The notes under the pieces are model-generated. The model made no database searches, was not told the origin of the DNA, and saw nothing but the letters and a program-made list of their open reading frames with translations. Below are positions 18,818 to 64,000 of a stretch of DNA of 64,000 nucleotides, one piece after another. Position numbers and translations under genes: made by a program. Origin of the DNA: an uncultured Acidobacteriota bacterium (GTDB lineage: Bacteria > Acidobacteriota > Vicinamibacteria > Fen-336); contig CAVOPG010000002.1 in assembly GCA_963697835.1 (NCBI GenBank), positions 2,243,256 through 2,307,255 on the forward strand, in the 5' to 3' direction. Within the stretch, counting starts at the first letter, position 1. Each line of letters starts with the position of its first letter.

Positions 18818-18827
18818 AGCCCGGAGC

Positions 18828-24462: not shown

Positions 24463-24634
24463 GAGGTCTCCTGGAATGCGTCCGCCCGGGCGGGCGGAAC
24501 CCGGCCAAGGATAGCCGACCCGGGCCGGACTGCCGGTGGTGCGAACGCACTAGACCGAACGGACGGTTCGCGCTGGCCTCGCTCCCGCGCCTGCGTTAAG
24601 GTAGCGCCCTCGGTTGTCGGGCAGGAGTGCATTC

Positions 24635-32584: not shown

Positions 32585-34653
32585 ATCACGGCGGTCGGCG
32601 GGGCCGGCTCGTCGGGAGCGCCCGCCTTCGACAGCGGACGACGCACGAGGTAGACGACCAGGAAGAGCATCACCGGGATGGCCAGCCAGCGGGCGATCCC
32701 GGCGAAGCCCGGCACCTGCGGGAACGCGATCTGCACGCTCGGGTCGCTCGCCGCCTGCCAGGCCTTGAACGCCACGACGCCGGCCGCCACGAGGCCCATG
32801 AGCGCCTCACCGGCGATGAGGCCGGAGGCGGTGAGGACGCCGGCGTTCTCGACCCGGGCCTTCTGGGCCACGTTGTAGCTGCGCTTGTCGGCCAGCCGGT
32901 CCACGAGGCCGCGCATGAGGCCGCCGACGAAGATGGCGAACGTCGTCTCCAGCGGCAGGTACATCCCCACGGCGAACAGCATCGGGCTCTTGACCCGCAC
33001 CAGGACGAGGGAGAGGCCCATCGCTATGCCGACGATCACCAGGGGCCAGGCCATCTCCCCGCCCACGATGCCCTGGGAGAGCGCGGCCATGAGCCCGGCC
33101 TGGGGCGCCGAGAGATTGGGCCCGCCGAAGCCGCCGGTCTGCGGGTTGGCCGCGAGATCCGAGGTGTGAAGCAGGTAGAGCGGGAAGTAGAGGACGAGCC
33201 CCGCGACCACGACCCCGATGATGTCGCCCACCTGCATCTTCCACGGCGTGCCGCCGAGGATGTGCCCGACCTTGAGGTCCTGCAGCATCTCGCCCGCCAC
33301 CGCCGAGGAGACGCACACGACCGCGGCCACCCCGAGGACGGCGGCCACCCCCTCTACCCCCTTCACCTTCACGATGACCATCGTGAGCGCGGCCACGATC
33401 GTGGTGGCCAGGGTCAGGCCGGAGATCGGGTTGTTGGAGGAGCCGATCATGCCGACGAGGTTGCCGGAAACCGCGGCGAAGAAGAACCCGGTCACGAGCA
33501 TGACGATCGCGGCGAAGATGGCGCCCGGCAGGACCTTGGCGAAGTAGAAGTAGAGGGCGATCATGAGCACGAACACGACCGCGATACCCATGAGCACCGT
33601 GCGGAACGACAGGTCGCGGTCGGTGCGTAGCGTCGCGGTCTGGGCGGCGGCCGACTTCTGCACGTCGGCGACCCCTCGCTTCAGACCCGTGGCGAGGTTC
33701 TTCCGCATCCGGAAGAGCGTGTAGCTCGCGCCGACGAGCATCCCCCCCACCGCGATCGGCCGCACGATCGACACCCAGACGTGGCCGGCGAGACGGGCCC
33801 AGTTGGTCACTCCGTCGGCCCCGGTGTAGCCGGGAGCGAGCTGCGGGCCGAGGAAGAACACGAGCAGGGGCACGAAGAGGCCCCAGGCGAGAAGGCCGCC
33901 CGCGAAGTTCAGGGCCCCCAGCTCGGGGCCGATGATGTAGCCCACACCCAGGTAGGCCGGGCTCACCCCCGGGGCCTGGAAGGTGGTGGCCCCCCCGGCG
34001 GGGACCATGGCGGCGTCCCTGGTGAGCCCGAGCCGCACGAAGCTCTCCTTGATCCGTCCGACCGCGATCGGCAACGCGTTCGACGCCCGGAAGATCCCGG
34101 AGTCGCCGAGGAGCTTGATGAACGCGCCCACGCCCATGGCGCTGAAGAGCTGGACCGCGGCGTCCGCCCCGCGCTGGCCCGCCTTGTGGATCTCCGACGC
34201 CGCCACCGACTCCGGGAAGGGCAGCGAGCGGTCCTCCACCATGACGCGTCGCAGGATCGTGACGAAGAGGACCCCGAGGATGCCGCCCACTATCATGAGC
34301 GCGCTCGCCGTGAGGTACTCGGCCAGGTCGAAGCTGTGGAAGTCCCAGATCCGGAGGATGACGAACGCGGGGATCGTGAAGATCGCCCCCGCCGCGACCG
34401 ACTCGCCGATGGAACCGACGGTCCGCGCGAAGTTCTCCTCGAGGAGCGAGCCCTTCATCATGCGGAGCACGGCCATGCCGATGACCGCGGCCGGGTAGGT
34501 GGCGGCGATCGTCATGCCCGCCCGCAGGCCGAGGTAGGCGTTTGCGGCGCCGAGGACGACGCTCATCACCAGCCCCAGGAGGAGCGCCCGCAGCGTGAAC
34601 TCCGACATCGTGGAGTCCGCGCTGACGTAGGGCTTGTGTTCCTTGTCGCTCAT
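32581..34653 (-). CDS. OPT family oligopeptide transporter
   Basis: Intact 690 aa, RBS AAGGAGG. Signature FTLRALLLGLVMSVVLGAANAYLGLRAGMTIAATYPAAV. The stop overlaps the M20-A start by 4 nt. Confidence 0.9.
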   Translation of the reverse strand: MSDKEHKPYVSADSTMSEFTLRALLLGLVMSVVLGAANAYLGLRAGMTIAATYPAAVIGMAVLRMMKGSLLEENFARTVGSIGESVAAGAIFTIPAFVILRIWDFHSFDLAEYLTASALMIVGGILGVLFVTILRRVMVEDRSLPFPESVAASEIHKAGQRGADAAVQLFSAMGVGAFIKLLGDSGIFRASNALPIAVGRIKESFVRLGLTRDAAMVPAGGATTFQAPGVSPAYLGVGYIIGPELGALNFAGGLLAWGLFVPLLVFFLGPQLAPGYTGADGVTNWARLAGHVWVSIVRPIAVGGMLVGASYTLFRMRKNLATGLKRGVADVQKSAAAQTATLRTDRDLSFRTVLMGIAVVFVLMIALYFYFAKVLPGAIFAAIVMLVTGFFFAAVSGNLVGMIGSSNNPISGLTLATTIVAALTMVIVKVKGVEGVAAVLGVAAVVCVSSAVAGEMLQDLKVGHILGGTPWKMQVGDIIGVVVAGLVLYFPLYLLHTSDLAANPQTGGFGGPNLSAPQAGLMAALSQGIVGGEMAWPLVIVGIAMGLSLVLVRVKSPMLFAVGMYLPLETTFAIFVGGLMRGLVDRLADKRSYNVAQKARVENAGVLTASGLIAGEALMGLVAAGVVAFKAWQAASDPSVQIAFPQVPGFAGIARWLAIPVMLFLVVYLVRRPLSKAGAPDEPAPPTAVM

Positions 34654-34699
34654 GAAGCCTCCTTGCCGGGCCCGCGGAGCGGGCCGGCGGAGCCGGCGG

Positions 34700-34873
34700 G
34701 CCGGATGTCGCGCGGATTGTACCCCAGGCCGGAGGTTCGACCCTGCCGTCGAAGAGCAGGAGCGTGGGCATCGCGCTCACGTCCCCGAACGAGCGGGCCA
34801 GCTCGGGGCCGCCCATCGCCCAGGAGGACACCCGCGCCTGCGGGAGCGCATTCGCAGAGGAGCCCGGGCTCGT
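34700..34873 (-). pseudogene. Thioredoxin-fold remnant (C-terminal part only, no CxxC region)
   Basis: The minus-strand frame following TAG (plus cta 34874-34876) reads ...RVSSWAMGGPELARSFGDVSAMPTLLLFDGRVEPP... Compare the thioredoxin C-terminal consensus ...np.la.kygv..iPTlllF.nG. There is no start codon or upstream active-site segment, and it runs out of frame into the OPT start. Confidence 0.35.
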
Positions 34874-34898
34874 CTAGACTCGGCGACGGGAAGCATCA

Positions 34899-36344
34899 AT
34901 GCCGCAGTCCGCCCCCTCCGACCGGCGCCCCGACCTCCGAGGGCGAGCCGTCCGCGCCGCGCTCGGCCACGCCGAGGCGCACGTCGGCGAGGTGAAGGCC
35001 CGCCTGGCCGATCTCGTTCGGATCCCGAGCGTCTCGGCCGCGGGCTTTCCCCCCGGGGAGGTGCGCCGCTCGGCCGAGGCGACCGCGGCCGTCCTGCGCG
35101 AGGCCGGCCTCGAGAACGTGCGCCTCATCGAGATGCCGGGCCAGCACCCTTACGTCTACGCCGACTGGCTCCACGTCCCCGGCGCGCCCACCCTGCTCGT
35201 ATACGGCCACCACGACGTCCAGCCCCCGGGACGGACGGAGAGGTGGAAGACCCCGGCCTTCGAGCCGGCCGAGCGCGGCGGGCGACTCTACGGGCGGGGA
35301 GCGGTGGACGACAAGGGCACGTTCATGACCCACGTCGCCGCGATCCGCGCGTGGCTCGAGACCTCCGGCCGGCTGCCCCTCAACGTGAAGATCCTCATCG
35401 AAGGGGAGGAGGAGATCGGCTCGCCGGGCCTCGAGGCGTTCCTGGCGCGGCACGCCCGGGCCCTCGCCGCCGACGTCGCCGTGCTCGCCGACACCGGCAA
35501 CTTCGACGTGGGTCACCCCGCCCTCACCTACCAGCTCCGCGGCATCTGCCAGGTCGACGTCGAGGTGCGCTGCCTGGCGCAGCCCGTCCACAGCGGCTTC
35601 TGGGGCGGGCCGGTGCCGGACGCGGTGCGCATCCTCGCCCGCCTCGTCGCCGACCTCGAGAAGCCCGGCGGATCGCTGAACGTCCCCGGGCTCTACCGCT
35701 CCGTCGCGAAGACCGGAGGAAAGCAGCTCCGGAGGATCCGCACGCTGCCGTTCGACGAGGCGAAGTTCCGCGCGTCGGCGGCGATGAGGCCGGGTACCCG
35801 CTTCGTCGGCGAGAAGGCCTACTCCGTGTGGGAGCGTCTGTGGACGCGGCCCGCGCTCACCGTCATCGCCCTCGAGGCCCACCCCGTCGCCGGCTCCTCC
35901 AACCAGATCATCGACTCGGCGCGGGCGTTGCTATCCATGCGCACCGTGCCCGACATGGACGCCCGAGCCGCCGGCCGGCTGCTCGTGAAGAAGCTGACGT
36001 CCCGCCCGCCGGCCGGCGCGAAGGTGACGGCCCGAGTCAGCGGCACCTCGCTCTGGTGGAAGACCGACCCCGAGGGCCCGGCCTTCGAGGCGGCGCGGCG
36101 CGCGCTGCTGCAGGGCTACGGGCGCGAGGCGGCCATGATCGGCGCCGGCGGCTCGATCGGTTTTGTCAAGCCCTTCTCCGACGCCCTCGGCGGCGTGCCG
36201 TGCCTGCTCATGGGCGTCGAGGACCCTTCCTCGGCCATCCACTCCGAGAACGAGAGCGTCCATCTCGGGGACTTCCTGAACGCGATCCGCGCGGCGGTGC
36301 ACCTCTACGACGAGCTGTCCCGGACGTCCCTGGCGAGAGGATGA
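34899..36344 (+). CDS. M20 family dipeptidase, paralog B (inverted relative to paralog A)
   Basis: Intact 481 aa with the same motif set (VYGHHDVQPPG, GRGAVDDKG, ILIEGEEEIGS, HSENESVHL). By eye it aligns along its whole length with 31166-32584, at roughly 55-60% identity. Confidence 0.9.
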   Translation: MPQSAPSDRRPDLRGRAVRAALGHAEAHVGEVKARLADLVRIPSVSAAGFPPGEVRRSAEATAAVLREAGLENVRLIEMPGQHPYVYADWLHVPGAPTLLVYGHHDVQPPGRTERWKTPAFEPAERGGRLYGRGAVDDKGTFMTHVAAIRAWLETSGRLPLNVKILIEGEEEIGSPGLEAFLARHARALAADVAVLADTGNFDVGHPALTYQLRGICQVDVEVRCLAQPVHSGFWGGPVPDAVRILARLVADLEKPGGSLNVPGLYRSVAKTGGKQLRRIRTLPFDEAKFRASAAMRPGTRFVGEKAYSVWERLWTRPALTVIALEAHPVAGSSNQIIDSARALLSMRTVPDMDARAAGRLLVKKLTSRPPAGAKVTARVSGTSLWWKTDPEGPAFEAARRALLQGYGREAAMIGAGGSIGFVKPFSDALGGVPCLLMGVEDPSSAIHSENESVHLGDFLNAIRAAVHLYDELSRTSLARG

Positions 36345-36874: not shown

Positions 36875-37894
36875 ATGGTCGCGGGGTTCCTGGTCCTGAC
36901 CGGGGTCACCCTCGCTCGCGCGACGGACGCTCCCTCCGCGATCGTGGACTCCGAGTTCGTCTTCGAGCGCGCGCCCTTCCGGTCCGCCCACGCGTCCACG
37001 ATCGTGGAGACGCGGGACGGGCTCCTGTGTGCGTGGTTCGGGGGAACGGAGGAGGGGCGGCCGGACGTCGGCATCTGGCTGTCGCGGCGAAGCGAAAAGG
37101 GCTGGTCCCCTCCGGTCGAGATCGCGACCGGCCGTCAACCCGACGGCACGCGCCACCCCTGCTGGAACCCCGTGCTCTTCCAGCCGTCGCGCGGCCCCCT
37201 GCTCCTCTTCTACAAGATCGGCCCCAGCCCGCGCGAGTGGTGGGGCCTCGTCCGCACCTCGACCGACGAGGGGCGCTCGTGGTCGGACTCGGTCCTCTTG
37301 CCGGCCGGGATCCTCGGCCCCATCCGCGCCAAGCCCGTCGAGCTCCCCGGTGGAGACGTGCTCGCCGGGTCGAGCACCGAAGACGCCGGCTGGGCCGTGC
37401 ACATGGAGCGCTGGACGCCGGCGGACCCGGCCTCTGCCGCCGCATGGCGGAAGAGCGGCCGCCTCAACGACCCGCGGGAGCTCGAGGCCATCCAGCCGAC
37501 GCTGCTCGTGCACTCGCCGACGCGGCTCCAGGCCCTCTGCCGCAGCCGGCAGAAGGTGGTCACGGAAGCCTGGTCCGAAGACGGCGGGACAACCTGGGGG
37601 CGGATGACCGCGACGGCGCTGCCGAACCCGAGCGCCGGGATCGACGCCCTGCGGCTCGCCGACAGCCGTTTCCTGCTCGTCTACAACCCGACCACGACCG
37701 GCCGCGACCGCCTCGAGGTCGCGGTCTCGGCCGACGGCAAGGCGTGGCGCCGCGGCGTCGTCCTCGAGGCCTCGCCGGGCGAGCACTCCTACCCCGCCAT
37801 GATCCAGTCGCGCGACGGCCTCGTTCACGTCACCTACACGTGGAAGCGCGAGCGGATCAAGCACGTCATCCTCGCCCCCGCAGCGATACAGTAG
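36875..37894 (+). CDS. BNR/sialidase-like (exo-alpha-sialidase fold) protein
   Basis: ATG immediately follows the upstream TGA. FRSAHASTIVETRDGLLCAWFGGTEEG, TSTDEGRSWS and SEDGGTTWG (BNR Asp-box motifs SxDxGxTW). Confidence 0.75.
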   Translation: MVAGFLVLTGVTLARATDAPSAIVDSEFVFERAPFRSAHASTIVETRDGLLCAWFGGTEEGRPDVGIWLSRRSEKGWSPPVEIATGRQPDGTRHPCWNPVLFQPSRGPLLLFYKIGPSPREWWGLVRTSTDEGRSWSDSVLLPAGILGPIRAKPVELPGGDVLAGSSTEDAGWAVHMERWTPADPASAAAWRKSGRLNDPRELEAIQPTLLVHSPTRLQALCRSRQKVVTEAWSEDGGTTWGRMTATALPNPSAGIDALRLADSRFLLVYNPTTTGRDRLEVAVSADGKAWRRGVVLEASPGEHSYPAMIQSRDGLVHVTYTWKRERIKHVILAPAAIQ

Positions 37895-37922
37895 AGGGGA
37901 AGAAGCCAGAGGGAGGCGCGCC

Positions 37923-38921
<999 letters not shown>

Positions 38922-54057: not shown

Positions 54058-55044
54058 TTACCAGCTCGGGTGAACCAGCGGGCGCAGCCGCTCGTCGTAG
54101 ACGGCCTTCACCGCCGCCATCGTTGCCGGTGAGAGCGGCGGCAGGTCCGCGGCGGCGGCGTTGTCGCGGGCCTGCGCGGGCGTCCTCGCCCCCGGGATCG
54201 CGCAGCTCACCGCCTCGAACATGAGCGTCCACCGGAGCGCGAGCTGGCTCAGGGTCGTGCCGTCGGGGACGAGCGGGCGCAGGCGCTCGACGGCCTCGAG
54301 CCCGACTTCGTACGGCACGCCCGAGAACGTCTCGCCCTTGTCGAACGCCTCGCCGTCGCGGTTGAAGCTGCGGTGGTCGTCTCGCGAGAACGCCGAGGCC
54401 TTCGTCAGCTTGCCGGTCAGCATTCCGCTCGCGAGCGGCACCCGGGCCAGGATCCCCGCGTGCCGGTGCAACGCCTCGGCGAAGAGCTTCTCGGCGGGCT
54501 TCAGGCGGAACATGTTGAAGATGATCTGCACGGTCTGGACCCGGGGATGGCGGAGCGCGCGGTGGGCTTCCTCCACGGTCTCGACGCTGACGCCGTAGTA
54601 GCGGATCTTCCCCTCTTGCACCAGGTCGTCGAGCAGGCCGAAGACCTCCGGCCTGTCGTACACCGCGGGGTGGGGGCAGTGGAGCTGCAGGAGGTCCACT
54701 GCCTCCATCTCGAGGTTCTTCAGGCTGCGATCCAGCCAGGCGTTCAGGTTCGCGCGGCCGTAGCCCTCGGGCGTCTGCTTCGGCAGGCGTCGCCCCGCCT
54801 TGGTGGCGACGAAGATCGTCTCGCCCTTCCGCTCGCGACGGAGGCGCGCCACGAGCCGCTCGCTGCGCCCGTCCCCGTAGACGTCGGCGGTGTCGACGAA
54901 GTTGGTGCCGGCGTCGACGGCGGCGTGCAGCGCGCGCATCGACTCCTCGTCGTCCACCGGGCCCCAGGTGCCGCCGATCGCCCAGGCCCCGAAGCTGATC
55001 GCCGAAACCTTCATGTCCGTCTTCCCGAGCTGTCGGTATTCCAT
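54058..55044 (-). CDS. Aldo/keto reductase
   Basis: ATG 55044 follows GGAGG. MEYRQLGKTDMKVSAISFGAWAIGG, FVDTADVYGDGRSE, AVDLLQLH and IRYYGVS. Confidence 0.9.
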   Translation of the reverse strand: MEYRQLGKTDMKVSAISFGAWAIGGTWGPVDDEESMRALHAAVDAGTNFVDTADVYGDGRSERLVARLRRERKGETIFVATKAGRRLPKQTPEGYGRANLNAWLDRSLKNLEMEAVDLLQLHCPHPAVYDRPEVFGLLDDLVQEGKIRYYGVSVETVEEAHRALRHPRVQTVQIIFNMFRLKPAEKLFAEALHRHAGILARVPLASGMLTGKLTKASAFSRDDHRSFNRDGEAFDKGETFSGVPYEVGLEAVERLRPLVPDGTTLSQLALRWTLMFEAVSCAIPGARTPAQARDNAAAADLPPLSPATMAAVKAVYDERLRPLVHPSW

Positions 55045-55088
55045 GGCGTCTCGCCTCCGCGGAGCCGGGGGCCCCGACGCCGCCGATT

Positions 55089-56741
55089 CTAGCGACGAAC
55101 GGGCGAGCCTGGCGCGCGCCGGTACCACGGGAGCCGGTCGAGCGGGGCGCTCACTTCCACCGACGTCGGGCCGGTGACGACGCTGCCGTCGTCCCCCTGC
55201 CAGCGCCCGGGCGGGACCACGACGCGGCGCTTCCGCGCCCCCTTCTCCACCACCGGGGCCACCAGGATGTCGGGGCCCAGCAGGAACTGGTCGCCGACGT
55301 CGGCGTAGCCCATGTGCGGGTACGCGTACTCCAGGGATCGGACGATCGGCTCTCCGGTCTTCGCCGACTCCCGGGCGAGGGCCAGGATCTCCGCCCCTCT
55401 CTCGGTGTGCAGGGCCGCCATGCGCCGGCAGATCGCGAGGTTGTCCTGGCCCAGCACTCTCCACGGGGCCACCGAGAACTGCATCATGGGCATCAGGGCG
55501 TGGACCTCGGCCGCGCGGACGATGAGCTCCTGGTCGATCGCGGACAGGTTCCGGAAGGACAGGTATTCCCCGCCCCCGATCATGTCGGGACAGGCGAACG
55601 GGTACCCCATGAGCCCCAGGTTCACGATGCCGGGGACGAGCTTCCGCAGGTCTTCCCAGGTGTGCTCCTTGTCCCGCAGGCGCTGGGCGAGCGGCTGCCC
55701 GCCCGCCTTCCAGCACGCGCGGTACTCGTTGAGCGGGTAGCGGAGCCCCAGCTGGGCGAAGGCCTCCGTGTGGCGGTTCGGGGTGGCGGCGGCGTCGAAG
55801 GCGACGGCGCCGGTGAGCATCGCCCCGGCACTGAAGAGCTCCGCGTCGCCGCCGTCGAGCTTGAAGCCGTCGACGCCGTACGCGTCGACGAGGCGGTCGA
55901 ACTGCGCGAGGAGCCAGCCCCGGCCGTGGGGGTTCGTGAGGTCGGTGACGGCGCTGAAGCCGTCCCACCAGCGCACGAGGGCCGGAAGGCGGGGGTCCGC
56001 CTTGCTGCGGAGCCAGACGACGCTGGACTCGTCGTGGAGGAGCTCCGTGAACTGCTTCCCGTCGGGCTGGATGTACGGGCAGACCCACACCATGACCTTG
56101 AAGCCCATCCGGTGGAGCTCCGCGATCATCTCCTTCGGGTCGGGGAAGCGGCCGCGGTGGAAGTCCCAGACGCCGTAGCCCTCCGCCCAGCCCTCGTCGA
56201 TCATCAGGACCGCCGGGGGAAAGCCGTTCGCGACGATGCCCCGGGCGTAGGCGAGGACGTCCCGCTGGTTCTGGTCGTAGGTGAGCTCGATCCAGGTGTT
56301 GAACTGCGGGTGCGTGAAGAGCATCGGGTCTGGGATCTTCCCCGACGCGGGAAAGAAGGTCCGGCCGGCGTGGAGGGCTGCTTCCCGCAGCGTCCTGCCG
56401 TGTCGACCGGCCTCTACCGGGCCGAGGTCCGAGATCACCTGGATCCGGCCGTCGCGGGACGCGAGCCGGAACGGCTCCTCGGACCAGACGTAGCGGCCGT
56501 CGGTCGACAGCAGGAGCGGCTGCACCTGGTTGCCCGCGGTGTTGCCGAGGAGGTCGATCTCGAAGGGGGCGCTGGAGCGGCCGAGGGGCATCCGGTGCGA
56601 CTCGCTGACGACGCCTACCCACCACCTCTCGTCGTCCCCGACCGCGATCTCGAGCGACTGGCTCTTCTCGGCGCCGCGGACGGGTGGCCGGACCATCCCG
56701 GCGGCGAGGAACGCGAGGACGAGGGCGGCGCGCCGGCGCAT
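55089..56741 (-). CDS. Glycoside hydrolase family 31-like protein, secreted
   Basis: ATG 56741. The signal peptide is MRRRAALVLAFLAAGMV. Motifs include FNTWIELTYDQNQ, VLMIDEGWAEGYGVWDF, MGFKVMVWVCPYI, GVDGFKLDGGDAE and PWRV. Confidence 0.8.
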   Translation of the reverse strand: MRRRAALVLAFLAAGMVRPPVRGAEKSQSLEIAVGDDERWWVGVVSESHRMPLGRSSAPFEIDLLGNTAGNQVQPLLLSTDGRYVWSEEPFRLASRDGRIQVISDLGPVEAGRHGRTLREAALHAGRTFFPASGKIPDPMLFTHPQFNTWIELTYDQNQRDVLAYARGIVANGFPPAVLMIDEGWAEGYGVWDFHRGRFPDPKEMIAELHRMGFKVMVWVCPYIQPDGKQFTELLHDESSVVWLRSKADPRLPALVRWWDGFSAVTDLTNPHGRGWLLAQFDRLVDAYGVDGFKLDGGDAELFSAGAMLTGAVAFDAAATPNRHTEAFAQLGLRYPLNEYRACWKAGGQPLAQRLRDKEHTWEDLRKLVPGIVNLGLMGYPFACPDMIGGGEYLSFRNLSAIDQELIVRAAEVHALMPMMQFSVAPWRVLGQDNLAICRRMAALHTERGAEILALARESAKTGEPIVRSLEYAYPHMGYADVGDQFLLGPDILVAPVVEKGARKRRVVVPPGRWQGDDGSVVTGPTSVEVSAPLDRLPWYRRAPGSPVRR

Positions 56742-56749: not shown

Positions 56750-57607
56750 TCACTGGTAGCGGCACGAAGCCTGGTCGGCCTCCTCGTAGTACGACCGGTA
56801 GTTCTTCGCCTTCTTGTCCGTGCAGCCGACGAGGTTCAGCAGCTCCACCTTCCGGAACTCGACCGGGTGGCTCTCGGCCTGGAGCGAGATCGAGCCGCCG
56901 GTGAGCAGCTGGCCGTCCTTCTTCACCGCCGGGTCGTGGTTCAGGACGTTGCCGCCGCCGATCTGCGGCTTCTCGTACGCGAGCACGGTCTCGCCGTTCA
57001 CCTTGTGGGTGATCGCGCCGCCGCCGTGGACCTCGACCTCGACGCGAACCCACTGGTCCCCGTCGAACGTCTTCGAGGTCGAGTTGACGCAGTGCTGCGT
57101 CTCCAGCTTCCCGTTCATCACCACGTTCGTCCCCGGCGTGCAGACGTTCGCGGTCGGGCGGGGCTTGCCGTCGCCCCGTCCGCCGAGGAGCTGCACCTCG
57201 ATCGAGATCGGGAAGTCCTGGTCCTTCCTCATCGTCTCGACCGGCTGGCCGTGGATCATGATCCCGCTGTTGCGGAAGCCCCAGTCCGGGCCGCCTTTCG
57301 TCTGCTCGCCCGTGAAGCGGTACTCGACCGCGATCACGTAGTGCGAGAAGGGCGTCCGGTAGAAGAGGTGGCCGAAGCGGTTGCCGAAGGTGTCGTACCG
57401 GTCGTAGGCGACCTTCGGAGCACGCCGTCTTCGACCCGGAACGTGTTGCCGAAGTTCTCCCCCGACCTCGTAGCCGGTGATCTTCGGCACCCAGCCGTCG
57501 AGATTCTTCCCGTTGAAGAGCGGGATCCACTCCTTCCGGTCCGGGTCTTCCGAGAAGGCGAGGGCGGGGGCGAGGAGCAGCAGCAGGACGAGAGCGTGTC
57601 GCTTCAT
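56750..57607 (-). CDS. DUF1080 (3-keto-disaccharide hydrolase-like) protein with an internal compensated frameshift
   Basis: Signal peptide, WIPLFNGKNLDGWVPKITGYEVG and ...SISLQAESHPVEFRKVELL. Residues GELRQHVPGRRRRAPK are out of character. Shifting the frame across 57421-57475 gives ENFGNTFRVEDGVL, which fits the family. Confidence 0.8.
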   Translation of the reverse strand: MKRHALVLLLLLAPALAFSEDPDRKEWIPLFNGKNLDGWVPKITGYEVGGELRQHVPGRRRRAPKVAYDRYDTFGNRFGHLFYRTPFSHYVIAVEYRFTGEQTKGGPDWGFRNSGIMIHGQPVETMRKDQDFPISIEVQLLGGRGDGKPRPTANVCTPGTNVVMNGKLETQHCVNSTSKTFDGDQWVRVEVEVHGGGAITHKVNGETVLAYEKPQIGGGNVLNHDPAVKKDGQLLTGGSISLQAESHPVEFRKVELLNLVGCTDKKAKNYRSYYEEADQASCRYQ

Positions 57608-57692
57608 GCGGGCAAGCGTACCGCATGTCCAGCGGTTGGGAGCGGAGGCGCCGGCTCGTCCCGGGCCGAACGCGCGGTGGTCGGGCGAGGAA

Positions 57693-57722
57693 TTGCCGGT
57701 GGGCGTCCGCCGGTGCTAGCAT
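57693..57722 (+). promoter_or_regulatory. Weak sigma-70-like promoter candidate for the kinase gene
   Basis: TTGCCG (57693-57698), an 18-nt spacer, then TAGCAT (57717-57722), about 90 nt upstream of TTG 57811. This is a pattern match only. Confidence 0.2.
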
Positions 57723-57810
57723 CCGCTCGTCCCAAACCCATCCAGCGACGGTCGTTCGGCATCACCACACGTGCGGTCCCCTCCTCCGGCGACCGCCTCT
57801 CGAGGTTCGA

Positions 57811-60800
57811 TTGATCGGCAGCAAGCTGGCCGGCCGGTACGAGCTGACGGGGGAGGTCGGCCGTGGGGGGATGGGGGTCGTCTATCGGGCCCACGACCCG
57901 CTGCTGAACCGGGAGGTCGCGGTCAAGCTCATCCCGCCCGCCCAGCTCAGCGCGGAGGCCGAGCAGCGCTTCCAGCGCGAGGCCCAGGTGGTGGCCCAGA
58001 TGGACCATCCCTCGATCGTGGCGATCCACGATCTGGGCCGTCACGAGGGGTCTCTCTTCTTCGTGATGCCGCTCGTGCCGGGGATGAACCTGCACCAGTT
58101 CCGGCACCGGCGCTCGGCCCTGGGCGACGTGGTGGACATCGCCATCCAGATCGCGGAGGCGCTCGAGTACAGCCACGCTCGGGGAGTGGTGCACCGGGAC
58201 ATCAAGCCCGACAACGTGATGGTGGCGGAGGAAGCGGGTGGGCTCCGGGTCCGCGTGATGGACTTCGGGCTGGCGCGGGCCTCGAGCGAGACGCGCCTCA
58301 CGAAAACCGGGGCGCTCCTGGGGACGCTCGCGTACCTGAGCCCGGAGCAGGTGGCGGCACGTGACCTCGACGGGCGGTCGGACATCTACTCGCTGGGGGT
58401 GGTGCTCTACGAGTGCGTGACGGGCGCCCCGCCTTTCCAGGGAGATGCGCAGTCGGTGCTGTACCGGATCGTGCACGAGCTGCCGCGGTCGCCGCGCTCC
58501 CTGGGGGCGGAGATCGACGAGGATCTGGAGGCGATGATCCTGTCTTGCCTGGAAAAGGAGCCGGGCAAGCGGCCGCAGCGGGCGGGGGAGGTCGCGGAAG
58601 GGCTGAAGCGGTACCGCTCCCGGCTGCGCGACAGCGACCGGGAACGGCCGCTCACGGGGCTCACGCTCACGACTCCCCGGCCGGTCCTGGCGCCGTTCGT
58701 GGGGCGCGCGAAGGAGTTCGCGGAGCTGCAGCGCCGGATGAACGCCGCGCTCGACGGCGAGGGCCAGTTCGTCGTGGTGTCGGGCGAGCCCGGCATCGGG
58801 AAGACACGGCTCCTGGACGAGCTGGAGAAGCTCGCCTCGGCGCGGCAGATCCGGGTCCTGCACGGGCGGTCGCTCGAGCGCGACCGCGCCTTCGCGTACC
58901 AGGGCATCTGCGAGATCATCCAGGAGCACTTCCGTCAGAAGGACACGGCGAGCTCGCCCGCCCTCGATTTCTCGGACCTCGCGGGAGACCTCCTGACGCT
59001 CTTCCCGATGCTGGCCGAGGTCGGCGAGATCCGAAGGGCCTCCTCCGGCGACGCGCCTCGCGGCGCCGAAGCCGCGCCCGCCCTGGACAACAAGACCCAG
59101 ATCTTCGAGCTCCTCGCCCGCACCCTCGCCCGGATCGCCGCCTCGAAACCCCTCGTCCTGATCCTCGAAGACCTGCACGGGGCGGAGGCGACGATCGAGG
59201 CCCTCTCGTACGTCGTGACCCGCCTCAGCCCCACCCCGACCCTCATCCTCGGCACCTACCGCTCGACCGAGGTGGACGAGCGCCATCCGCTCACTCGTGT
59301 CCTCGACGGCTTCCGCGGCGACCGCCGCTTCTCCCACGTCACCCTCGGACCCTTCTCGCCCTCCGAGCACCGCTCGCTTATCGAGACGCTCGTGGGCGGC
59401 TCCGAGCTCGCCGACGGTCTCGTCGACCGCCTCTTCGAAGCCACGAAGGGCAACGCCTTCTTCGCCAAGGAGCTGGTGCGCTCGCTGCTGGACGCCGGGA
59501 GCATCTCCCGGGAGGCGAGCGGACGCTTTCGCCTCTCCGGCGAAACGGAGATCGGCGCCGAGGCCCTCCCCGCCACGATCCAGGAGGCGGTCGAGAAGCG
59601 GATCCGTCGCCTTCCGGAGGAGCTGCGCGAGGTCCTGCAGACCGCGGCCGTGATCGGCAAGACCTTCGACTCGCGCGACCTCGCGGCGCTGGCGAAAGGC
59701 ACGGACGTGGACGACGCGATCGACCGGCTCGTGCAGCAGGGATTGATCGAGGAGGAGCGCGAGTCGCGCGGGGAGCAGCTCAGCTTCTCGAGCGGCGTCG
59801 TCCGAGACGTGCTCTACGCGGGTCTCTCGCCCCGGAAGCGGCGGTCGCTCCACCGCAAGTGCGGGGAGGCCCTGGAGGCGCGCCACGGCAGCCGAAGCGA
59901 CCGCGTGCTGCCCCAGCTCGTCCAGCACTTCTACCAGGGCGACGTTCCCGAGAAGGCGGTCGAGTACGGCCTGCGCCTCGCCCGCGCGCTCCTCGACACC
60001 TTCAGTGTGGAGGAGGCGGCACGGGCGGCGAAGACGGTGCTCGACTGCCTGGACGAGGAGTGGCACGGCGAGCGGGCGGTCGAGGGCGAGGCCCGGATGC
60101 TCCTGGCGCGGGCGGAGCGGATCTCGGGGCACACCGAGACGGCGCTCGAGGCGGCGGCGGCCGCGGCGCGGATCTTCGAGGAGCAGGCCCAGCCCGCCCG
60201 GGCCGCGGCCGCGCTCCTTCTCGCGGCGGAGTCGGCGTGGCAGGCGCGGCGGAGCGAGGAGGCGGGCCGGTGGGTGGAGAGGGGCCTCGCCGTGGCGCGG
60301 GAGGCGGGCGAGCTCGAGAGCCTGAGGCCGCTCCTGTCCCTCGCCGCCACCCTCGCCAACCTCCGCGGCGAGTACGCGAAGGCCAACGAGTACGTGAAGG
60401 AGTCGGCCCGGCTCGCGCCCTCGCCCGGGGAGGCCGCAGGGGAGGAGACGATCCCCGCGGGCGGCCGGCTCGTGGTCGGCCTGGCGAGCCCCGTCCGCTC
60501 CATCGAGCCCGCCGCCATCGGCATCGACGAGGAGATCGAGATCGCCGCCAACGTCTACGAGACCCTCCTCGCCACCGACTCGCAGGGCAACCTCGTGCCC
60601 GGGCTGTGCGAGAAGTGGGAGGCCTTCGAGGGCGGCCGCGCCTTCCTCCTGACGCTGCGCCGGGGCGTCTCCTTCTCCGACGGAACCCCCTTCACCGCCG
60701 ACGCCGTCAAGGTCTCGATCGAGGCGTGCGTCTCGGGGGCGGAAGGCGACCTCGCCCCCGCCTACGCCGCCATCCGGGGCAGCGCCCAGTATCGTGCCTG

Positions 60801-63429
60801 GACGGCGCCGGCCATTGACGGCGTCGTGGTGAGAAGCGACGACACGCTGGAGATTCGGCTGAACGAGCCCCTTCCCATCTACCCCGCCCTGCTGACCCAC
60901 CAGCGCACGGCGGTGGCGCGAGCTCCCGGACAGGGGGCCACGGGTCCGGCGGTGGGCACCGGCCCCTTCCGGGTCGCTTCACGCGACGCCACTCGGATCG
61001 TCCTGGAGCGCAATCCGGCGTACTGGCGGAGCGGTTGGCCACGGCTGGACGCCGTCGAGTTCCGGCCCGGGCTCGCCGCCACCGCGATCGCACGGGGCTT
61101 CCGCGCCGGTGAGATCGACGTCGCTCGCGACCTGCTTCCCCAGGATCTGGACGGCATCGTGCGTGACGGCCGCTTCCGGCAGGGGCTCGTCGAGACGGCC
61201 AAGAAGAACACCTACTTCGTGCTGTTCAACTGCCGGGGCGGGCCGAACACCGGACACCAGGCCGTGCGCCGCGCTCTCCGGGGAGTGGTGCGGACGAGCG
61301 ACCTCGTCTGGCGCACGCTCGGACGCTTCGCCGCGCCCGCCGTGTGTCTCGTCCCGCCGGGCCTGCTCGGCCACGACCCCGGGCGTCGGAGTCAGCTGCT
61401 GACCCTGGAGGACGCGCGGCGAGCGCTGGTGTCGGACGCGCCGGGGATGCGGCTCAGGGCCTCCGTACACCCCGTGCTCCAGGACCGGTGCGGCGCGCTC
61501 GTCGCCGCCCTTCGCGCGAGCTGGGCGGAGCTGGGCGTCGAGGTCTCGATCGAGACCGGGGACATGGCCGCCTTCCTGGACTCGTTCGAGAGGAGCGAGG
61601 GTCTCGACCTCCTGATCGGGCGCTGGAACCCCGACTACGACGATCCCGACAACTTCACCCACACGCTCTTCCACTCGAAGGCGGGCCACTACCGGAGCTG
61701 GTTCTCCTCGGAGGCGGCGGACCATCTGCTCGAGGAGGCCCGCTCCGAGAGCCGGCCCGCCGTCCGGGAGGCCCTCTACCGGAAGTTCGAGAGCCTCCTC
61801 GTCGAGGCGGACGCGCTCATCCCGCTCTTCCACGACGTCGACTATCGCCTGGCGAGCCCGAAGGTGCGGGGGCTCACCCTGCGGGGCACGGCGCCCTACG
61901 TCAACTACTCGGAGCTGGGTCGCGTCGAAGCCGGCGCGCCCGACATCGAGCCCCGGCGCGGGGCCGGAGGGATCCTCCACGTGCCCCTCGCCGGGGACGT
62001 GAGCACCCTCGACCCGGCGCTGGGCTACGGGCTCGACTACCTGGATGCCCTCCCCTGCATCTACGAGACGCTGACCCGCGGCGCCGAAGGGGCGAGGATC
62101 GTCCCGTGGCTCGCCACCGAGTGCCGAGCCGAGGAAGGCGGGCAGACCTACCGCCTCCGCCTGCGCGACGACGTCCGCTTCCACGACGGCCGGAGGCTCG
62201 GCCCGCGCGACGTGCGCCACTCGTTCGAGCGGCTGCTGCAATCCCGCGGCGAGCCCCGCTGGCTCCTCTCGTCGATCCGCGGCGCTCGCGCCGTCCTGAG
62301 CGGCGAGAGAAAGGACCTCGAGGGCTTCCGGATCCACTCGGCGAGCGAGTTCACGATCGACCTGGAAGAGCCGGTCGCCTTCTTCCCGGCCGTTCTGGCC
62401 TTCGAAGGGGCGTCGATCGTCCCCGAGGGAAGCGATCCGTCCACGCGGGCACAGGAATGCGTGGGCACGGGACCGTTTCGCGTCGTGGCCTTCGAGCCCG
62501 GGCGGCGGCTCGAGCTCGAGCGCAACCGGTCCTACTGGCGGGAGGGGTATCCGCGCAGCGAAGGCCTCGTCTTCAGCTTCGGAGTGCCGCCCGCGGACAT
62601 CCTCTCCGGCTTCCGGGCCGGTCGTTTCTCGCTCGCGGGCGACCTCTTCCCGGCCGACGCCGATGCCCTTCGGCGCGAGCCCGGCTTCGCCTCCCGGTAC
62701 CGCGAGAACCCTCGCCTCAGCACCTATTTCGTCGCGTTCAACTCCCGGCGCGGCCCGCTCGCCGACCGGACGCTGCGCCAGCGCCTCCTCCTCGCCGTGG
62801 ACGCTCCCGCGCTCGTGCGGCAGAACCTCGGGCGGATGGCCATCCCCGCGGCCAGCCTGATCCCGCCCGGCCTCCTCGTCCACGACCCGACGCACGCCGC
62901 CCGGGTCGAGCCGACCCGCCCGGCGGCGCCCACGGAGCAGCCGGCGGCGGTCGAGGTGACCGCGGCCGTCCATCCGGTCTTCTCCGCCGGCTACTCCGCC
63001 TTCTCGCGCGGGCTCGTGAGCGCGATCGCCGGCGCGGGGGTGACGGTCCGGTCGGCCACGAGCACCTACGACGAGTACCTGGAGGCGGTGACGCAGGGCA
63101 GCGTCGACCTGCTGGTGGGCCGATGGACCGGCGACTATCCGGACGCCGACACCTTCGCCTACGTGCTGCACTCGCAGGGGGGCTTTCTCGGCCGCTTCTG
63201 CGCCTCGGCCGAGCTCGATCGCCTCGTCGGGCTGGGACGAACGGAGACGACGCCCGCGACCCGACACGCGATCTACCGCGAGATCGAGGAGACGGTCGCC
63301 CGCGAGGCGCTGCTCATTCCCCTCTTCCACGAGCAGGCGTACCGCTTCGCCCGGCCGGAGGTCGAAGGCCTCTCCATCTCCGCCACCCTCGGGCAGGTGG
63401 CGTACGAGGACCTCCACATCCGCGGGTAG
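57811..63429 (+). CDS. Multidomain signalling protein: Ser/Thr protein kinase, AAA_16/STAND ATPase, TPR-like helical region and two tandem family-5 solute-binding-protein (SBP_bac_5, Dpp/Opp-like) modules
   Basis: Uninterrupted ORF 57625..63429. TTG 57811 follows GAGG and gives MIGSKLAGRYEL.... Kinase motifs are GRGGMGVVY, AVK, HRDIKPDN, DFGLA and LAYLSPE. Walker A is SGEPGIGKT and Walker B is LVLILEDLH. SBP5 module 1 is ORF aa about 945-1432 (LVPGLCEKWEAFEGGRAFLLTLRRGVSFSDGTPFTADAV..., GTGPFRV, NPAYW). Module 2 is aa about 1448-1934 (IVPWLATECRAEEGGQTYRLRLRDDVRFHDGRRLGPRDV..., GTGPFRV, NRSYW). I see no signal peptide or 20-residue hydrophobic segment. Confidence 0.9.
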   Translation: MIGSKLAGRYELTGEVGRGGMGVVYRAHDPLLNREVAVKLIPPAQLSAEAEQRFQREAQVVAQMDHPSIVAIHDLGRHEGSLFFVMPLVPGMNLHQFRHRRSALGDVVDIAIQIAEALEYSHARGVVHRDIKPDNVMVAEEAGGLRVRVMDFGLARASSETRLTKTGALLGTLAYLSPEQVAARDLDGRSDIYSLGVVLYECVTGAPPFQGDAQSVLYRIVHELPRSPRSLGAEIDEDLEAMILSCLEKEPGKRPQRAGEVAEGLKRYRSRLRDSDRERPLTGLTLTTPRPVLAPFVGRAKEFAELQRRMNAALDGEGQFVVVSGEPGIGKTRLLDELEKLASARQIRVLHGRSLERDRAFAYQGICEIIQEHFRQKDTASSPALDFSDLAGDLLTLFPMLAEVGEIRRASSGDAPRGAEAAPALDNKTQIFELLARTLARIAASKPLVLILEDLHGAEATIEALSYVVTRLSPTPTLILGTYRSTEVDERHPLTRVLDGFRGDRRFSHVTLGPFSPSEHRSLIETLVGGSELADGLVDRLFEATKGNAFFAKELVRSLLDAGSISREASGRFRLSGETEIGAEALPATIQEAVEKRIRRLPEELREVLQTAAVIGKTFDSRDLAALAKGTDVDDAIDRLVQQGLIEEERESRGEQLSFSSGVVRDVLYAGLSPRKRRSLHRKCGEALEARHGSRSDRVLPQLVQHFYQGDVPEKAVEYGLRLARALLDTFSVEEAARAAKTVLDCLDEEWHGERAVEGEARMLLARAERISGHTETALEAAAAAARIFEEQAQPARAAAALLLAAESAWQARRSEEAGRWVERGLAVAREAGELESLRPLLSLAATLANLRGEYAKANEYVKESARLAPSPGEAAGEETIPAGGRLVVGLASPVRSIEPAAIGIDEEIEIAANVYETLLATDSQGNLVPGLCEKWEAFEGGRAFLLTLRRGVSFSDGTPFTADAVKVSIEACVSGAEGDLAPAYAAIRGSAQYRAWTAPAIDGVVVRSDDTLEIRLNEPLPIYPALLTHQRTAVARAPGQGATGPAVGTGPFRVASRDATRIVLERNPAYWRSGWPRLDAVEFRPGLAATAIARGFRAGEIDVARDLLPQDLDGIVRDGRFRQGLVETAKKNTYFVLFNCRGGPNTGHQAVRRALRGVVRTSDLVWRTLGRFAAPAVCLVPPGLLGHDPGRRSQLLTLEDARRALVSDAPGMRLRASVHPVLQDRCGALVAALRASWAELGVEVSIETGDMAAFLDSFERSEGLDLLIGRWNPDYDDPDNFTHTLFHSKAGHYRSWFSSEAADHLLEEARSESRPAVREALYRKFESLLVEADALIPLFHDVDYRLASPKVRGLTLRGTAPYVNYSELGRVEAGAPDIEPRRGAGGILHVPLAGDVSTLDPALGYGLDYLDALPCIYETLTRGAEGARIVPWLATECRAEEGGQTYRLRLRDDVRFHDGRRLGPRDVRHSFERLLQSRGEPRWLLSSIRGARAVLSGERKDLEGFRIHSASEFTIDLEEPVAFFPAVLAFEGASIVPEGSDPSTRAQECVGTGPFRVVAFEPGRRLELERNRSYWREGYPRSEGLVFSFGVPPADILSGFRAGRFSLAGDLFPADADALRREPGFASRYRENPRLSTYFVAFNSRRGPLADRTLRQRLLLAVDAPALVRQNLGRMAIPAASLIPPGLLVHDPTHAARVEPTRPAAPTEQPAAVEVTAAVHPVFSAGYSAFSRGLVSAIAGAGVTVRSATSTYDEYLEAVTQGSVDLLVGRWTGDYPDADTFAYVLHSQGGFLGRFCASAELDRLVGLGRTETTPATRHAIYREIEETVAREALLIPLFHEQAYRFARPEVEGLSISATLGQVAYEDLHIRG

Positions 63430-63443: not shown

Positions 63444-64000
63444 CTAGGCCAGGGACGTCGAGCGGACGAAGCGCGCCAGCACCAGCCCCGCCAGGAACCA
63501 GCCGACGGTGTGGTCCACGAGCTGCGCCAGGAAGTAGCTCGTGGGGAAACCGTACCAGTTCCAGTACGAGGCGTCGACGTCCAGCGTGACCAGCAGGCCC
63601 AGGGCCGCCGTGACGAGCACGCGCTGGCCGTAGCCCACGGAAGCGGGAACGTGAAGGAGGACAAACCCCGCCACCAGCGCGGCCAGCACGTTCGTCAGCA
63701 GCTCGGTCGCAAAGAGGGTCGCGAACAGCGACCCTGCCCAGGCTCGTTTCCCGGGCTGGGGGTCGAAGGCCACGACGCCGCCCGGCCCCGCCTGCCACCT
63801 GGCGGTCCAGGCGGCCTGCTCCGATTCGCTCATGGGCCGGCTCGGGTCCAGCCCGGGAAAGACGTAGACGGCCCGTTCGTTCATCGCGCTGCGCATGGCG
63901 GCCAGGACAGCGGCCTCCTGCTCGGGAGGCATGGCACGAAGGCCGACCCTGCCCAGCGGCAGCAGCTCGTGGGAGACCGCCCCCCACACGAAAAGGCCGA
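63444..64000 (-). CDS. Hypothetical membrane protein, probably 5'-truncated by the window edge
   Basis: ORF 63444..63989 stays open upstream to the window end (..GLFVWGAVSHELLPLG..). The C-terminal half is hydrophobic (LFATLFATELLTNVLAALVAGFVLLHV, VLVTAALGLLVTL, VGWFLAGLVLARF). Confidence 0.4.
   Translation of the reverse strand, partial: GLFVWGAVSHELLPLGRVGLRAMPPEQEAAVLAAMRSAMNERAVYVFPGLDPSRPMSESEQAAWTARWQAGPGGVVAFDPQPGKRAWAGSLFATLFATELLTNVLAALVAGFVLLHVPASVGYGQRVLVTAALGLLVTLDVDASYWNWYGFPTSYFLAQLVDHTVGWFLAGLVLARFVRSTSLA

Follow-up and report, generated by a model that had tools for sequence, protein, structure and literature searches.

We analyzed a 64,000-nucleotide stretch of DNA from an uncultured acidobacterium (hereafter the window) and found that one of its genes encodes a Hanks-type Ser/Thr kinase fused to a P-loop NTPase core, a TPR-like helical array and two tandem SBP_bac_5 modules. 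SBP_bac_5 clamshells normally lie outside the cell and feed transporters; here, we think it somewhat likely (a probability of roughly 55%) that they form the distal sensor of a soluble cytoplasmic STAND-type receptor kinase, in which ligand capture would throw a switch that activates the kinase. Its signal is probably a small molecule within the cell. Pfam profile searches on the translation recovered the kinase, AAA_16 and SBP_bac_5 architecture of the original prediction, and the product is 1872 aa long where about 1870 aa had been expected. The gene and its parts are as follows:

57811..63429, + strand: whole gene with TTG start (1872 codons plus stop), running from kinase through NTPase and helical array to SBP modules 1 and 2
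57811..58650, + strand: Hanks-type Ser/Thr kinase domain, aa 1-280 (Pfam Pkinase; PknB match; invariant catalytic residues)
58693..59790, + strand: P-loop NTPase core, aa 295-660, with predicted nucleotide-binding, helical and winged-helix-like domains (AAA_16, TIGR03903, AlphaFold)
58783..58806, + strand: Walker A motif GEPGIGKT, aa 325-332 (read from the sequence)
59149..59178, + strand: Walker B strand PLVLILEDLH, aa 447-456 (read from the sequence)
59794..60414, + strand: TPR-like helical array, aa 662-868, about 10 helices (AlphaFold pLDDT mostly 80-95; weak TPR matches)
60415..60462, + strand: disordered linker APSPGEAAGEETIPAG, aa 869-884 (pLDDT <50 in both models; not hydrophobic)
60463..61920, + strand: SBP_bac_5 module 1, aa 885-1370 (Pfam; OppA 1b05; AlphaFold pLDDT ~90)
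61921..61968, + strand: inter-module linker, aa 1371-1386 (pLDDT <50 at model residues 511-523)
61969..63426, + strand: SBP_bac_5 module 2, aa 1387-1872 (8upi, MppA and DppA matches; likeness to module 1)

A scheme for STAND activation has been published, and PknK has been described as a STAND kinase (PMC4381067, PMC6468293). In the mechanism that we propose, the resting NTPase would be closed and ADP-bound, held in that state by the helical arm and the clamshells, which would contact it. Capture of a small cytoplasmic ligand, most likely one with a free ammonium group (for example, a peptide or an amino-acid-derived compound), would close one or both clamshells, and closure would release the autoinhibition. 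The NTPase would then swap ADP for ATP and oligomerize in a PknK/MalT-like switch, and the crowded kinase domains would trans-autophosphorylate their activation loops (T164/T166) before phosphorylating targets. Ligand binding, ligand class, autoinhibition, oligomerization and kinase activation are what we infer in this scheme. The clamshells fit the anatomy of a STAND switch as its sensor because the helical region is short and the SBP modules begin where the distal repeats of TIGR03903, a TOMM kinase/cyclase fusion model, would be. It had been proposed that the clamshells replace the usual TPR/WD40 sensor: their position fits that of a sensor, but the TPR-like array is retained and the clamshells are appended to it.

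Two tandem SBP_bac_5 modules

The Pfam SBP_bac_5 family (PF00496) matched two stretches of the protein (E 1.8e-105, 353.5 bits). Module 1 aligned with OppA (1b05) over its full length (E 3.4e-35 over residues 24-495), and module 2 matched 8upi (E 3.5e-36), MppA (1e-28) and DppA (2e-23), with MppA and DppA covered end to end. AlphaFold modeled the SBP half with a mean pLDDT of 82.6 and gave both modules a full-length cluster-C, two-lobe fold with the extra domain; Foldseek TM-scores to 8upi, 5u4o, MppA, OppA and YliB were 0.74-0.88 (target-normalized), and the orientation of one clamshell to the other is not predicted with confidence (pTM 0.58). The GTGPF motif, which had been noted in both copies, lies at 1049-1053 in module 1 and 1552-1556 in module 2 and is at least 90% conserved in both across the family. 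Both the motif and the completeness of the two modules were thus as originally described. Aligned with each other over 492 aa, the modules show 35% identity (E 3e-79), which indicates that the pair arose by internal duplication. We also looked for free periplasmic relatives of the modules: the short "SBP2-only" representatives start inside the module-1 tail or linker and lack a signal peptide, and we therefore regard them as gene fragments.

The two clefts were compared with that of OppA, in which Asp419 anchors the amino terminus of the peptide through the ligand alpha-amino group and Trp416 belongs to the same core. In module 1, D1275 of GRWNPDYDDPDNF (1270-1282) aligns with Asp419 and is conserved in 91% of 190 sequences, with W1272 at 96%; in module 2, the aligned residue is D1775 of GRWTGDYPDADTF (1770-1782), conserved in 92% of 225 sequences, with W1772 at 98%. 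A W-x-x-D-Y-x-D motif is kept in both. The Asp419/Trp416 core of OppA is retained, but its carboxylate-binding residues (R404, H405, R413, K307 and H371) are not. Positions corresponding to OppA contacts, taken from a presumed contact list and mapped through an alignment of ~25% identity, had a conservation of 0.76 in module 1 against a module average of 0.63, and of 0.58 against 0.61 in module 2, which is no excess; this mapping weakly supports a ligand cleft in module 1 only. Of the structural expectations for the two clefts, complete clamshells and the ammonium-anchoring Asp were found and the carboxylate-binding residues of OppA were not, such that a specificity for peptides, as put forward earlier, is only weakly indicated.

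The missing residues bear on an alternative that we consider unlikely but give real weight: that the SBP_bac_5 modules have ceased to bind small ligands and instead act as protein-protein interaction or scaffold domains, with the kinase regulated by another input. Such modules might dock kinase substrates, bind unfolded polypeptide tails or autoinhibit the NTPase. In addition to the missing carboxylate-binding residues and the lack of excess conservation at the mapped cleft positions of module 2, the modules are only ~16-26% identical to any solved SBP, and variants exist that have only one module or lack the NTPase, which implies that the tandem arrangement is not obligatory. The complete two-lobe fold with its extra domain has nevertheless been kept in both modules, the ammonium-anchoring Asp of W-x-x-D-Y-x-D is kept at 91-92%, and the mapped cleft positions of module 1 exceed the module average in conservation. 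Moreover, the literature treats the family of cytoplasmic SBP_bac_5 regulators as ligand-responsive, and glutamate has been reported as a ligand of E. coli SgrR (cited in PMC13060122).

Kinase domain and predicted STAND switch

By its Pkinase profile match and its predicted catalytic residues, the protein is a Hanks-type kinase. Pkinase (PF00069) matched aa 10-256 (E 2.3e-49, 168.6 bits against a Pfam cut-off of 31.7), and the catalytic residues fall at K39, HRD 128-130, N135, DFG 151-153 and S177-P178-E179, with the activation loop, SETRLTKTGALLGTLAYLSPE, at aa 159-179. M. tuberculosis PknB was the closest solved structure (E 5e-55): the N-terminus of the protein is the kinase beta1/Gly-loop, with residue 4 aligned to PknB residue 5, and T164/T166 align with PknB T171/T173. 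Across 61 sequences, K39, H128, R129, D130, N135, D151, F152, G153 and T164 were invariant.

Behind the kinase, AAA_16 (PF13191) matched aa 295-479 (E 6.2e-20, 72.8 bits against a Pfam cut-off of 32.6), and the AAA_16/TPR region of the NCBIfam model TIGR03903 was matched over model positions 481-1013 (E 1.3e-49). Among the same 61 sequences, G325, G328, G330 and K331 of Walker A were invariant and T332 nearly so, while in Walker B E453 was invariant and D454 at least 90% conserved. [quoted passage not shown] The inter-domain geometry in this N-terminal-half model is uncertain (pTM 0.42). The family profile gave E. coli MalT an hhalign probability of 9%, in the repeat region only, in a comparison whose sensitivity was low because the template was one sequence, and a PDB profile search (phmmer plus family profile) with the NTPase/helical part returned weak TPR matches and no STAND structure. 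With neither similarity detected, the STAND assignment rests on AAA_16, TIGR03903 and the predicted fold.

The helical region that follows the winged-helix domain is short (~207 aa), and the remaining C-terminus is mostly SBP_bac_5 rather than a repeat sensor. The TPR label originally given to this region holds in part: AlphaFold predicted about 10 stacked helices, but the array is weak by sequence, with a TPR_12 match at E 0.008, below the Pfam cut-off, and a TTC29 TPR match at E 6e-4. In the model, the array at aa 662-868 is a candidate "arm" or proximal sensor.

STAND proteins of the Avs type suggest a further alternative, which we judge improbable: that this is an antiviral or conflict system in which the clamshells recognize a phage peptide or protein and the kinase, together with SIR2 in some variants, is an abortive-infection effector. 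Of the 150 best cluster representatives, two (P0157 and P0251) carried an extra N-terminal SIR2_2 domain, and that of P0251 also matched the PADLOC LmuA model (E 1e-19). The kinase domain resembles the defense kinases PD-T4-6 and Mad6, the position of the gene is not conserved even between 83%-identical orthologs, and some MAGs hold two copies that are 56-65% identical. Against this, the PADLOC models (Avs, BREX PglW, Mad6 and PD-T4-6) found nothing in the window protein beyond the generic kinase domain (aa 1-280), with no match on the NTPase or sensor; the sensor half is 54-81% identical across three classes, unlike fast-evolving defense sensors; and the neighbors were metabolic or housekeeping genes at every locus examined, with no defense islands.

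Gene, family and cellular location

The gene lies within a single open reading frame (57625..63429, + strand). The TTG start originally chosen at 57811 proved sound: GAGG stands 5 nt upstream, the database protein P0001 has the same length and sequence as the TTG-start product (1872 aa, 100% identity), and homologs share the N-terminal start MIG[QTS]KL. GC3 is 0.92 and uniform along 57811..63429, and a simple promoter/terminator scan gave nothing informative. Two neighbors set the limits of the transcription unit:

56750..57607, - strand: upstream neighbor, 3-keto-disaccharide hydrolase family protein (Pfam PF06439, E 2.9e-33; ATG at 57607); divergently transcribed, not part of the system; sets the 5' limit
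63447..63998, - strand: downstream neighbor, convergent open reading frame (GC3 0.91; no Pfam family matched); sets the 3' limit

Because the flanking genes are divergent on the 5' side and convergent on the 3' side, the gene is monocistronic, as had been stated. The downstream frame comes to within 2 bases of the window end and so may extend past it.

No neighbor of the gene was conserved, either among 77 related loci (all-against-all clustering of flanking ORFs) or in four loci with gene tables. The clustering yielded a generic "other kinase" cluster in 21 of the 77 loci plus small lineage-specific clusters, and a conserved partner such as a transporter, phosphatase or FHA protein was dropped from consideration. 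Peptide sensing had also been argued from a window rich in peptidases, and this part did not survive: the S46, tricorn-like and M20 peptidases and the OPT transporter are real, but they lie at least 21 kb away, none is conserved near orthologs, and neither the window flanks nor the four related loci for which gene tables were used carry ABC permease or ATPase genes.

We found more than 120 colinear homologs of 1860-1940 aa that are 58-83% identical (NCBI, ENA, JGI and Logan assemblies), and at least 130 GTDB species carry the gene. As a phylum, Acidobacteriota are abundant in soil and seldom brought into culture. Most of the 80 loci listed are labeled Acidobacteriota, and loci labeled Vicinamibacteria, Blastocatellia and Thermoanaerobaculia carry the gene. 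The N-terminal halves are 62-86% identical, and high identity over the whole chain and in both halves argues for purifying selection on every domain. Related variants carry one SBP module, lack the NTPase or have the extra SIR2 domain. Judged from these alignments, the gene is real and conserved across soil Acidobacteriota. Public annotations call the protein an ABC transporter substrate-binding protein or a BREX ATP-binding protein; these labels are misleading and would mislead metabolic reconstructions.

From its hydropathy, the protein is soluble and cytoplasmic, as was first proposed. A 19-residue Kyte-Doolittle scan detected no signal peptide or transmembrane helix: the highest 19-residue mean (1.43) falls on the Walker B strand, no hydrophobic segment precedes either SBP module, and the N-terminus is the kinase itself. 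In 201 long relatives, hydropathy peaks above 1.6 fall on core strands and helices at homologous positions. SBP_bac_5 proteins are mostly exported, and the substrate-binding-protein label of the databases would suit a membrane-spanning or exported receptor with its kinase inside the cell and its SBP modules outside as conventional binding domains. We nonetheless find such a receptor very hard to credit, since no segment reaches transmembrane strength, the linkers are short polar stretches with predicted disorder, the NTPase and helical array sit between kinase and SBPs without a membrane anchor, and the peaks of homologs lie in globular cores. Least credible of all is an assembly chimera or fused pseudogene in which a kinase gene and two independent SBP genes were joined, in favor of which we found no points: the colinear homologs come from independent assemblies, every related locus with enough upstream DNA holds one uninterrupted frame of ~1875-2000 codons, composition is uniform along the gene and the alignments show conserved junction regions, so that the check for a chimera came out for an intact gene.

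Comparison with known systems

A literature search found no description of SBP_bac_5 combined with Pkinase in such an architecture, in agreement with the earlier statement that no characterized member was known. More tentatively than the cytoplasmic receptor itself, we suggest that this could be the first STAND-type switch with a Venus-flytrap sensor, two of them in tandem, and a widely conserved acidobacterial receptor kinase that reads an intracellular peptide-like or amino pool into Ser/Thr phosphorylation. Candidate pools would then include imported oligopeptides, murein peptides and a glutathione-like thiol peptide, and the paralogs and one-module variants would give different specificities. 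STAND design would extend beyond repeat-type sensors, and SgrR would be joined by another, independent instance in which a transporter binding protein has been co-opted for sensing in the cytoplasm. As the kinase and two copies of a very well understood ligand-binding fold form one covalent chain, the signal could be found directly from the isolated modules and linked to kinase output within one polypeptide.

Like OppA, MppA and DppA, both modules have the full-length fold, sequence homology and the Trp/Asp core; unlike them, the window protein lacks a signal peptide, a lipobox and neighboring permease or ATPase genes, and its modules are tandem-fused to signaling domains. The NCBIfam transporter-SBP models (OppA, DppA, NikA, GsiB and SapA) all scored far below their cut-offs (OppA 180.8 against 947, DppA 118.7 against 1005). 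The closest NCBIfam match for the NTPase/helical region was the TOMM kinase/cyclase fusion (TIGR03903), which likewise fuses a kinase to an AAA_16/TPR module. That match reached 294 bits against a cut-off of 706, the window protein has no cyclase domain, and the alignment stops at model position 1042 of 1267, such that the distal ~225 positions are absent and the SBP modules stand in their place.

Cytoplasmic sensing by SBP_bac_5 is not unprecedented: SgrR and DsvR are already HTH plus SBP_bac_5 regulators, in which a module without a signal peptide serves for sensing inside the cell and is joined to an output domain (PMC13060122). Their output is DNA binding, however, with one SBP module and no NTPase switch, whereas the window protein has no HTH and gave a marginal match to the NCBIfam SgrR model (E 1.5e-4; 20.6 bits, with the cut-off at 476). 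In mycobacteria, the GlnH-GlnX-PknG relay also brings SBP input to a Hanks-type kinase with TPR repeats (PMC6069109, PMC8546545), but there a separate extracytoplasmic SBP signals through a membrane protein, while here the SBP is fused and cytoplasmic, with the NTPase between sensor and kinase.

Both a cytoplasmic SBP_bac_5 sensor, SgrR, and a STAND kinase, PknK, are already known. PknK and MalT have been named as one STAND subfamily (PMC4381067). Compared by domain order, M. tuberculosis PknK is the closest system in architecture, with an N-terminal Hanks kinase that likewise precedes an AAA_16 NTPase and helical repeats, and by analogy the window protein, like PknK and MalT soluble and cytoplasmic, would be expected to use an inducer-released, ATP-dependent oligomerization switch. 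MalT binds maltotriose inside its TPR-like domain. PknK and MalT both sense through helical-repeat sensors, whereas in the window protein a short helical array is followed by ~1000 aa of two clamshells.

A kinase-NTPase fusion with two solute-binding modules

The ORF listing of the window gave a single long frame on the + strand (57625..63429), whose first in-frame ATG, at 57625, would add 62 codons and is 18 nt away from the start codon of the divergent 5′ neighbour. The original prediction had placed the gene at 57811-63429, and these coordinates hold: a TTG at 57811 has a GAGG 5 nt before it, translation from it yields 1872 aa matching a protein in a public collection (P0001) in both sequence and length, and relatives' starts have MIG[QTS]KL in common. 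On these grounds, we preferred the TTG over the upstream ATG. The extension (57625-57810, +) is Arg-rich, and an automatic longest-ORF call would add these codons wrongly. GC3 (0.92) and base composition are even along the whole ORF. As had been proposed, the gene is monocistronic, since its 5′ neighbour, a 3-keto-disaccharide hydrolase gene, is divergent and its 3′ neighbour, an ORF of no known family, is convergent.

Regions of the protein
aa 1-280, kinase region
aa 869-884, polar disordered linker between helical array and module 1
aa 885-1370, SBP module 1
between modules 1 and 2, second short linker
aa 1387-1872, SBP module 2

A Pfam scan of the 1872-aa protein placed Pkinase at aa 10-256, and the closest solved structure to this domain is M. 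tuberculosis PknB (E 5e-55). K39, HRD128-130, N135 and DFG151-153 are all present and invariant in 61 aligned sequences, and activation-loop residues T164 and T166 align as counterparts of PknB T171/T173. Kinase residue 4 aligns with PknB residue 5, and the N-terminus is the Gly-loop itself. Averaged over 19 residues, hydropathy peaks at 1.43, on the Walker B strand; this low peak, together with the position of the Gly-loop, indicates that there is no signal peptide or membrane segment, in agreement with what had been read from the sequence.

AAA_16 was matched at aa 295-479 (Pfam), and aa 294-865 match the AAA_16/TPR portion of a TOMM kinase/cyclase model (NCBIfam). In the AlphaFold model of the N-terminal half (mean pLDDT 77.8; pTM 0.42, at which inter-domain geometry is unreliable), a disordered stretch between kinase and NTPase (aa 282-294) is followed by a five-stranded alpha/beta NTPase (aa 300-512; Walker A GEPGIGKT, Walker B LILEDLH), a helical bundle (aa 517-561), a helix/beta-hairpin unit (aa ~590-660) and about ten stacked helices (aa 662-868). 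Such an order is what a STAND core with an arm or TPR-like array behind it would be expected to show. Sequence searches of the PDB reached no solved STAND protein from the NTPase/helical part, and E. coli MalT showed no link to the family profile (hhalign probability 9%). Of the predicted kinase-STAND-TPR arrangement, the kinase and AAA_16 matches stand and the modelled core order fits; TPR found only weak sequence matches (TPR_12, E 0.008; TTC29, E 6e-4).

The predicted tandem of SBP_bac_5 modules was borne out: Pfam matched the domain in two stretches of the C-terminal half, and each module aligns over its full length with solved peptide-binding proteins. Structure prediction of the tandem, a check proposed earlier, returned clamshell models (mean pLDDT 82.6) whose best structural matches were a Mesorhizobium peptide-binding protein, a Bacillus family-5 SBP, MppA, OppA and YliB/GsiB (target-normalised TM-scores 0.74-0.88). 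Both modules also match the NCBIfam OppA, NikA, DppA, SapA and GsiB models, all below threshold. They are 35% identical over 492 residues (E 3e-79), a closer match than any solved SBP gives with either one, which argues for duplication within the kinase-SBP lineage.

Family, variants and genomic surroundings

The query has over 120 colinear relatives in NCBI, ENA, JGI and Logan assemblies; they measure 1860-1940 aa, share 58-83% identity with it and have an identical set of Pfam domains. The original prediction had allowed for an assembly chimera; colinear homologues in independent assemblies instead mark a real gene family. With each GTDB species represented by a single genome, a scan gave at least 130 loci, and at every locus with enough upstream DNA the gene is one unbroken ORF of ~1875-2000 codons. 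Identity across the sample is 62-86% in the N-terminal half and 54-81% in the SBP half, suggesting strong constraint on all parts. Most of the 80 loci listed are labelled Acidobacteriota, Vicinamibacteria, Blastocatellia, Pyrinomonadaceae, Chloracidobacterium or Thermoanaerobaculia, and a few of their bin labels are unclassified or odd. Non-acidobacterial labels occur at L008, L017 (Clostridia), L020 (Nitrospiraceae) and L041 (Burkholderiales), with proteins 55-57% identical to acidobacterial ones; these probably reflect misbinning or mislabelling, not lateral transfer. Three MAGs hold two copies each, 56-65% identical (loci L004+L006, L035+L060 and L040+L055), which could be paralogues, perhaps differing in specificity, or bin contamination.

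We searched 50%-identity cluster representatives exhaustively and mapped domains in the best 150. About 70 clusters have the full architecture, and ~25 combine kinase, NTPase and helical array with one module-2-like SBP (~1350-1390 aa).

Variant architectures among the best 150 representatives
single module-2-like SBP: P0199 (L081:8001-12092), P0203, P0204, P0208, P0209, others
single module-1-like SBP, three clusters: P0192, P0197, P0220
NTPase absent, two clusters, ~1050 aa: P0250, P0264
extra N-terminal SIR2_2, two proteins, ~2180 aa: P0157 (L080:1267-7821), P0251

P0199 and P0157 are complete, contig-internal genes. "Free" SBP relatives of ~500 aa were rejected as fragments that start in the linker and carry no signal peptide.

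Peptidase and transporter genes of the window
10142-11029, - strand, M13 peptidase
18805-22227, - strand, tricorn-like protease with PD40 repeats
22282-24549, - strand, S46 dipeptidyl-peptidase
32584-34776, - strand, OPT oligopeptide transporter
34878-36341, + strand, M20 peptidase

The genes behind the proposed peptidase- and OPT-rich setting are real and fit a proteolytic lifestyle, but even the nearest, ending at ~36.3 kb, leaves a gap of at least 21 kb to the kinase-SBP gene, and none is linked to it. Four related loci have metabolic or housekeeping surroundings that share nothing with the window or one another and contain no ABC transporter genes, and clustering of flanking ORFs at 77 loci found no conserved partner gene; context therefore yields no functional clue. 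Elsewhere in the window, the ~2120-aa product of a giant ORF (3686-10057, -) contains six Calx-beta domains along with FG-GAP repeats and is probably a secreted or surface adhesin-like protein. An 855-codon ORF (54058-56625, -) matches Pfam (aldo/keto reductase) in its C-terminal third only; the true gene is probably shorter, or its N-terminal portion lacks annotation. Another aldo/keto reductase is encoded at 37803-38918 (+).

Candidate ligand site and proposed mechanism

OppA Asp419, the salt-bridge partner of the peptide alpha-amino group, aligned to D1275 within GRWNPDYDDPDNF of module 1; the module 2 counterpart of this motif is GRWTGDYPDADTF. Conservation in 190 module-1 and 225 module-2 sequences, respectively, is 91% and 92% for this Asp, 96% and 98% for the Trp before it, and 100% in both for the Asp after it. 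The basic residues with which OppA binds the ligand carboxylate are not retained in the modules. Mapped OppA contact positions exceed module-average conservation in module 1 only. On these sequence patterns, both clefts are probably still functional, and a candidate ligand that carries a free ammonium group is favoured; peptide specificity of the OppA kind is weakly indicated.

MalT and other STAND proteins are inducer-released, ADP-to-ATP oligomerisation switches, and PknK has been classed as a STAND Ser/Thr kinase (PMC4381067, PMC6468293). By analogy, the kinase-SBP protein most likely works by a scheme of this type: a cytoplasmic ligand would make the clamshell close, closure would lift autoinhibition of the NTPase, the NTPase would bind ATP and multimerise, and the clustered kinase domains would trans-autophosphorylate and then phosphorylate substrates. 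A pair of modules might confer dual specificity, cooperativity or coincidence detection; because one-module relatives exist, the second is an elaboration rather than a requirement.

It is unlikely that the modules serve instead as a ligand-independent scaffold. Less probable again is an Avs-like defence role, at odds with the strongly conserved sensor half and the housekeeping surroundings of the loci. The hints of such a role come only from generic similarity of the kinase to PD-T4-6 and Mad6 and from the rare variants P0157 and P0251. In both of these divergent relatives SIR2_2, a domain typically found in defence effectors that deplete NAD, precedes the kinase-NTPase-SBP-SBP body, and in P0251, where the kinase N-lobe is apparently reduced, the PADLOC LmuA model also hits the SIR2_2 region (E 1e-19). 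An extracytoplasmic SBP half is very improbable given the hydropathy profile, and an assembly chimera even more so given the independent homologues.

Annotation and comparison with known systems

Public names for family members (P0019, P0039, P0079, P0098, P0120 and others) are "ABC transporter substrate-binding protein" or "BREX system ATP-binding domain-containing protein", names that point to a family without a dedicated family model; both give a wrong idea of a cytoplasmic kinase fusion. The lack of an export signal and of linked transporter genes, and scores below every equivalog threshold, place the protein outside the transporter SBP functional class. A literature search found no paper describing the kinase-NTPase-SBP-SBP architecture, in keeping with the earlier statement that no characterised member was known. 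Judged from sequence, this is a solid, conserved, uncharacterised family of predicted receptor kinases, its architecture assembled from known parts through domain shuffling of a familiar type, and it opens the question of kinase signals to experiment.

In its presumed working the protein would be most like PknK and MalT, from which it differs by sensor class. SgrR/DsvR provide a precedent for intracellular SBP_bac_5 (PMC13060122), and both they and the kinase-SBP protein use this domain inside the cell. GlnH-GlnX-PknG is a precedent for an SBP feeding a Hanks kinase (PMC6069109); there, however, the components are individual proteins with the SBP outside the cell, whereas in the kinase-SBP protein they are fused.
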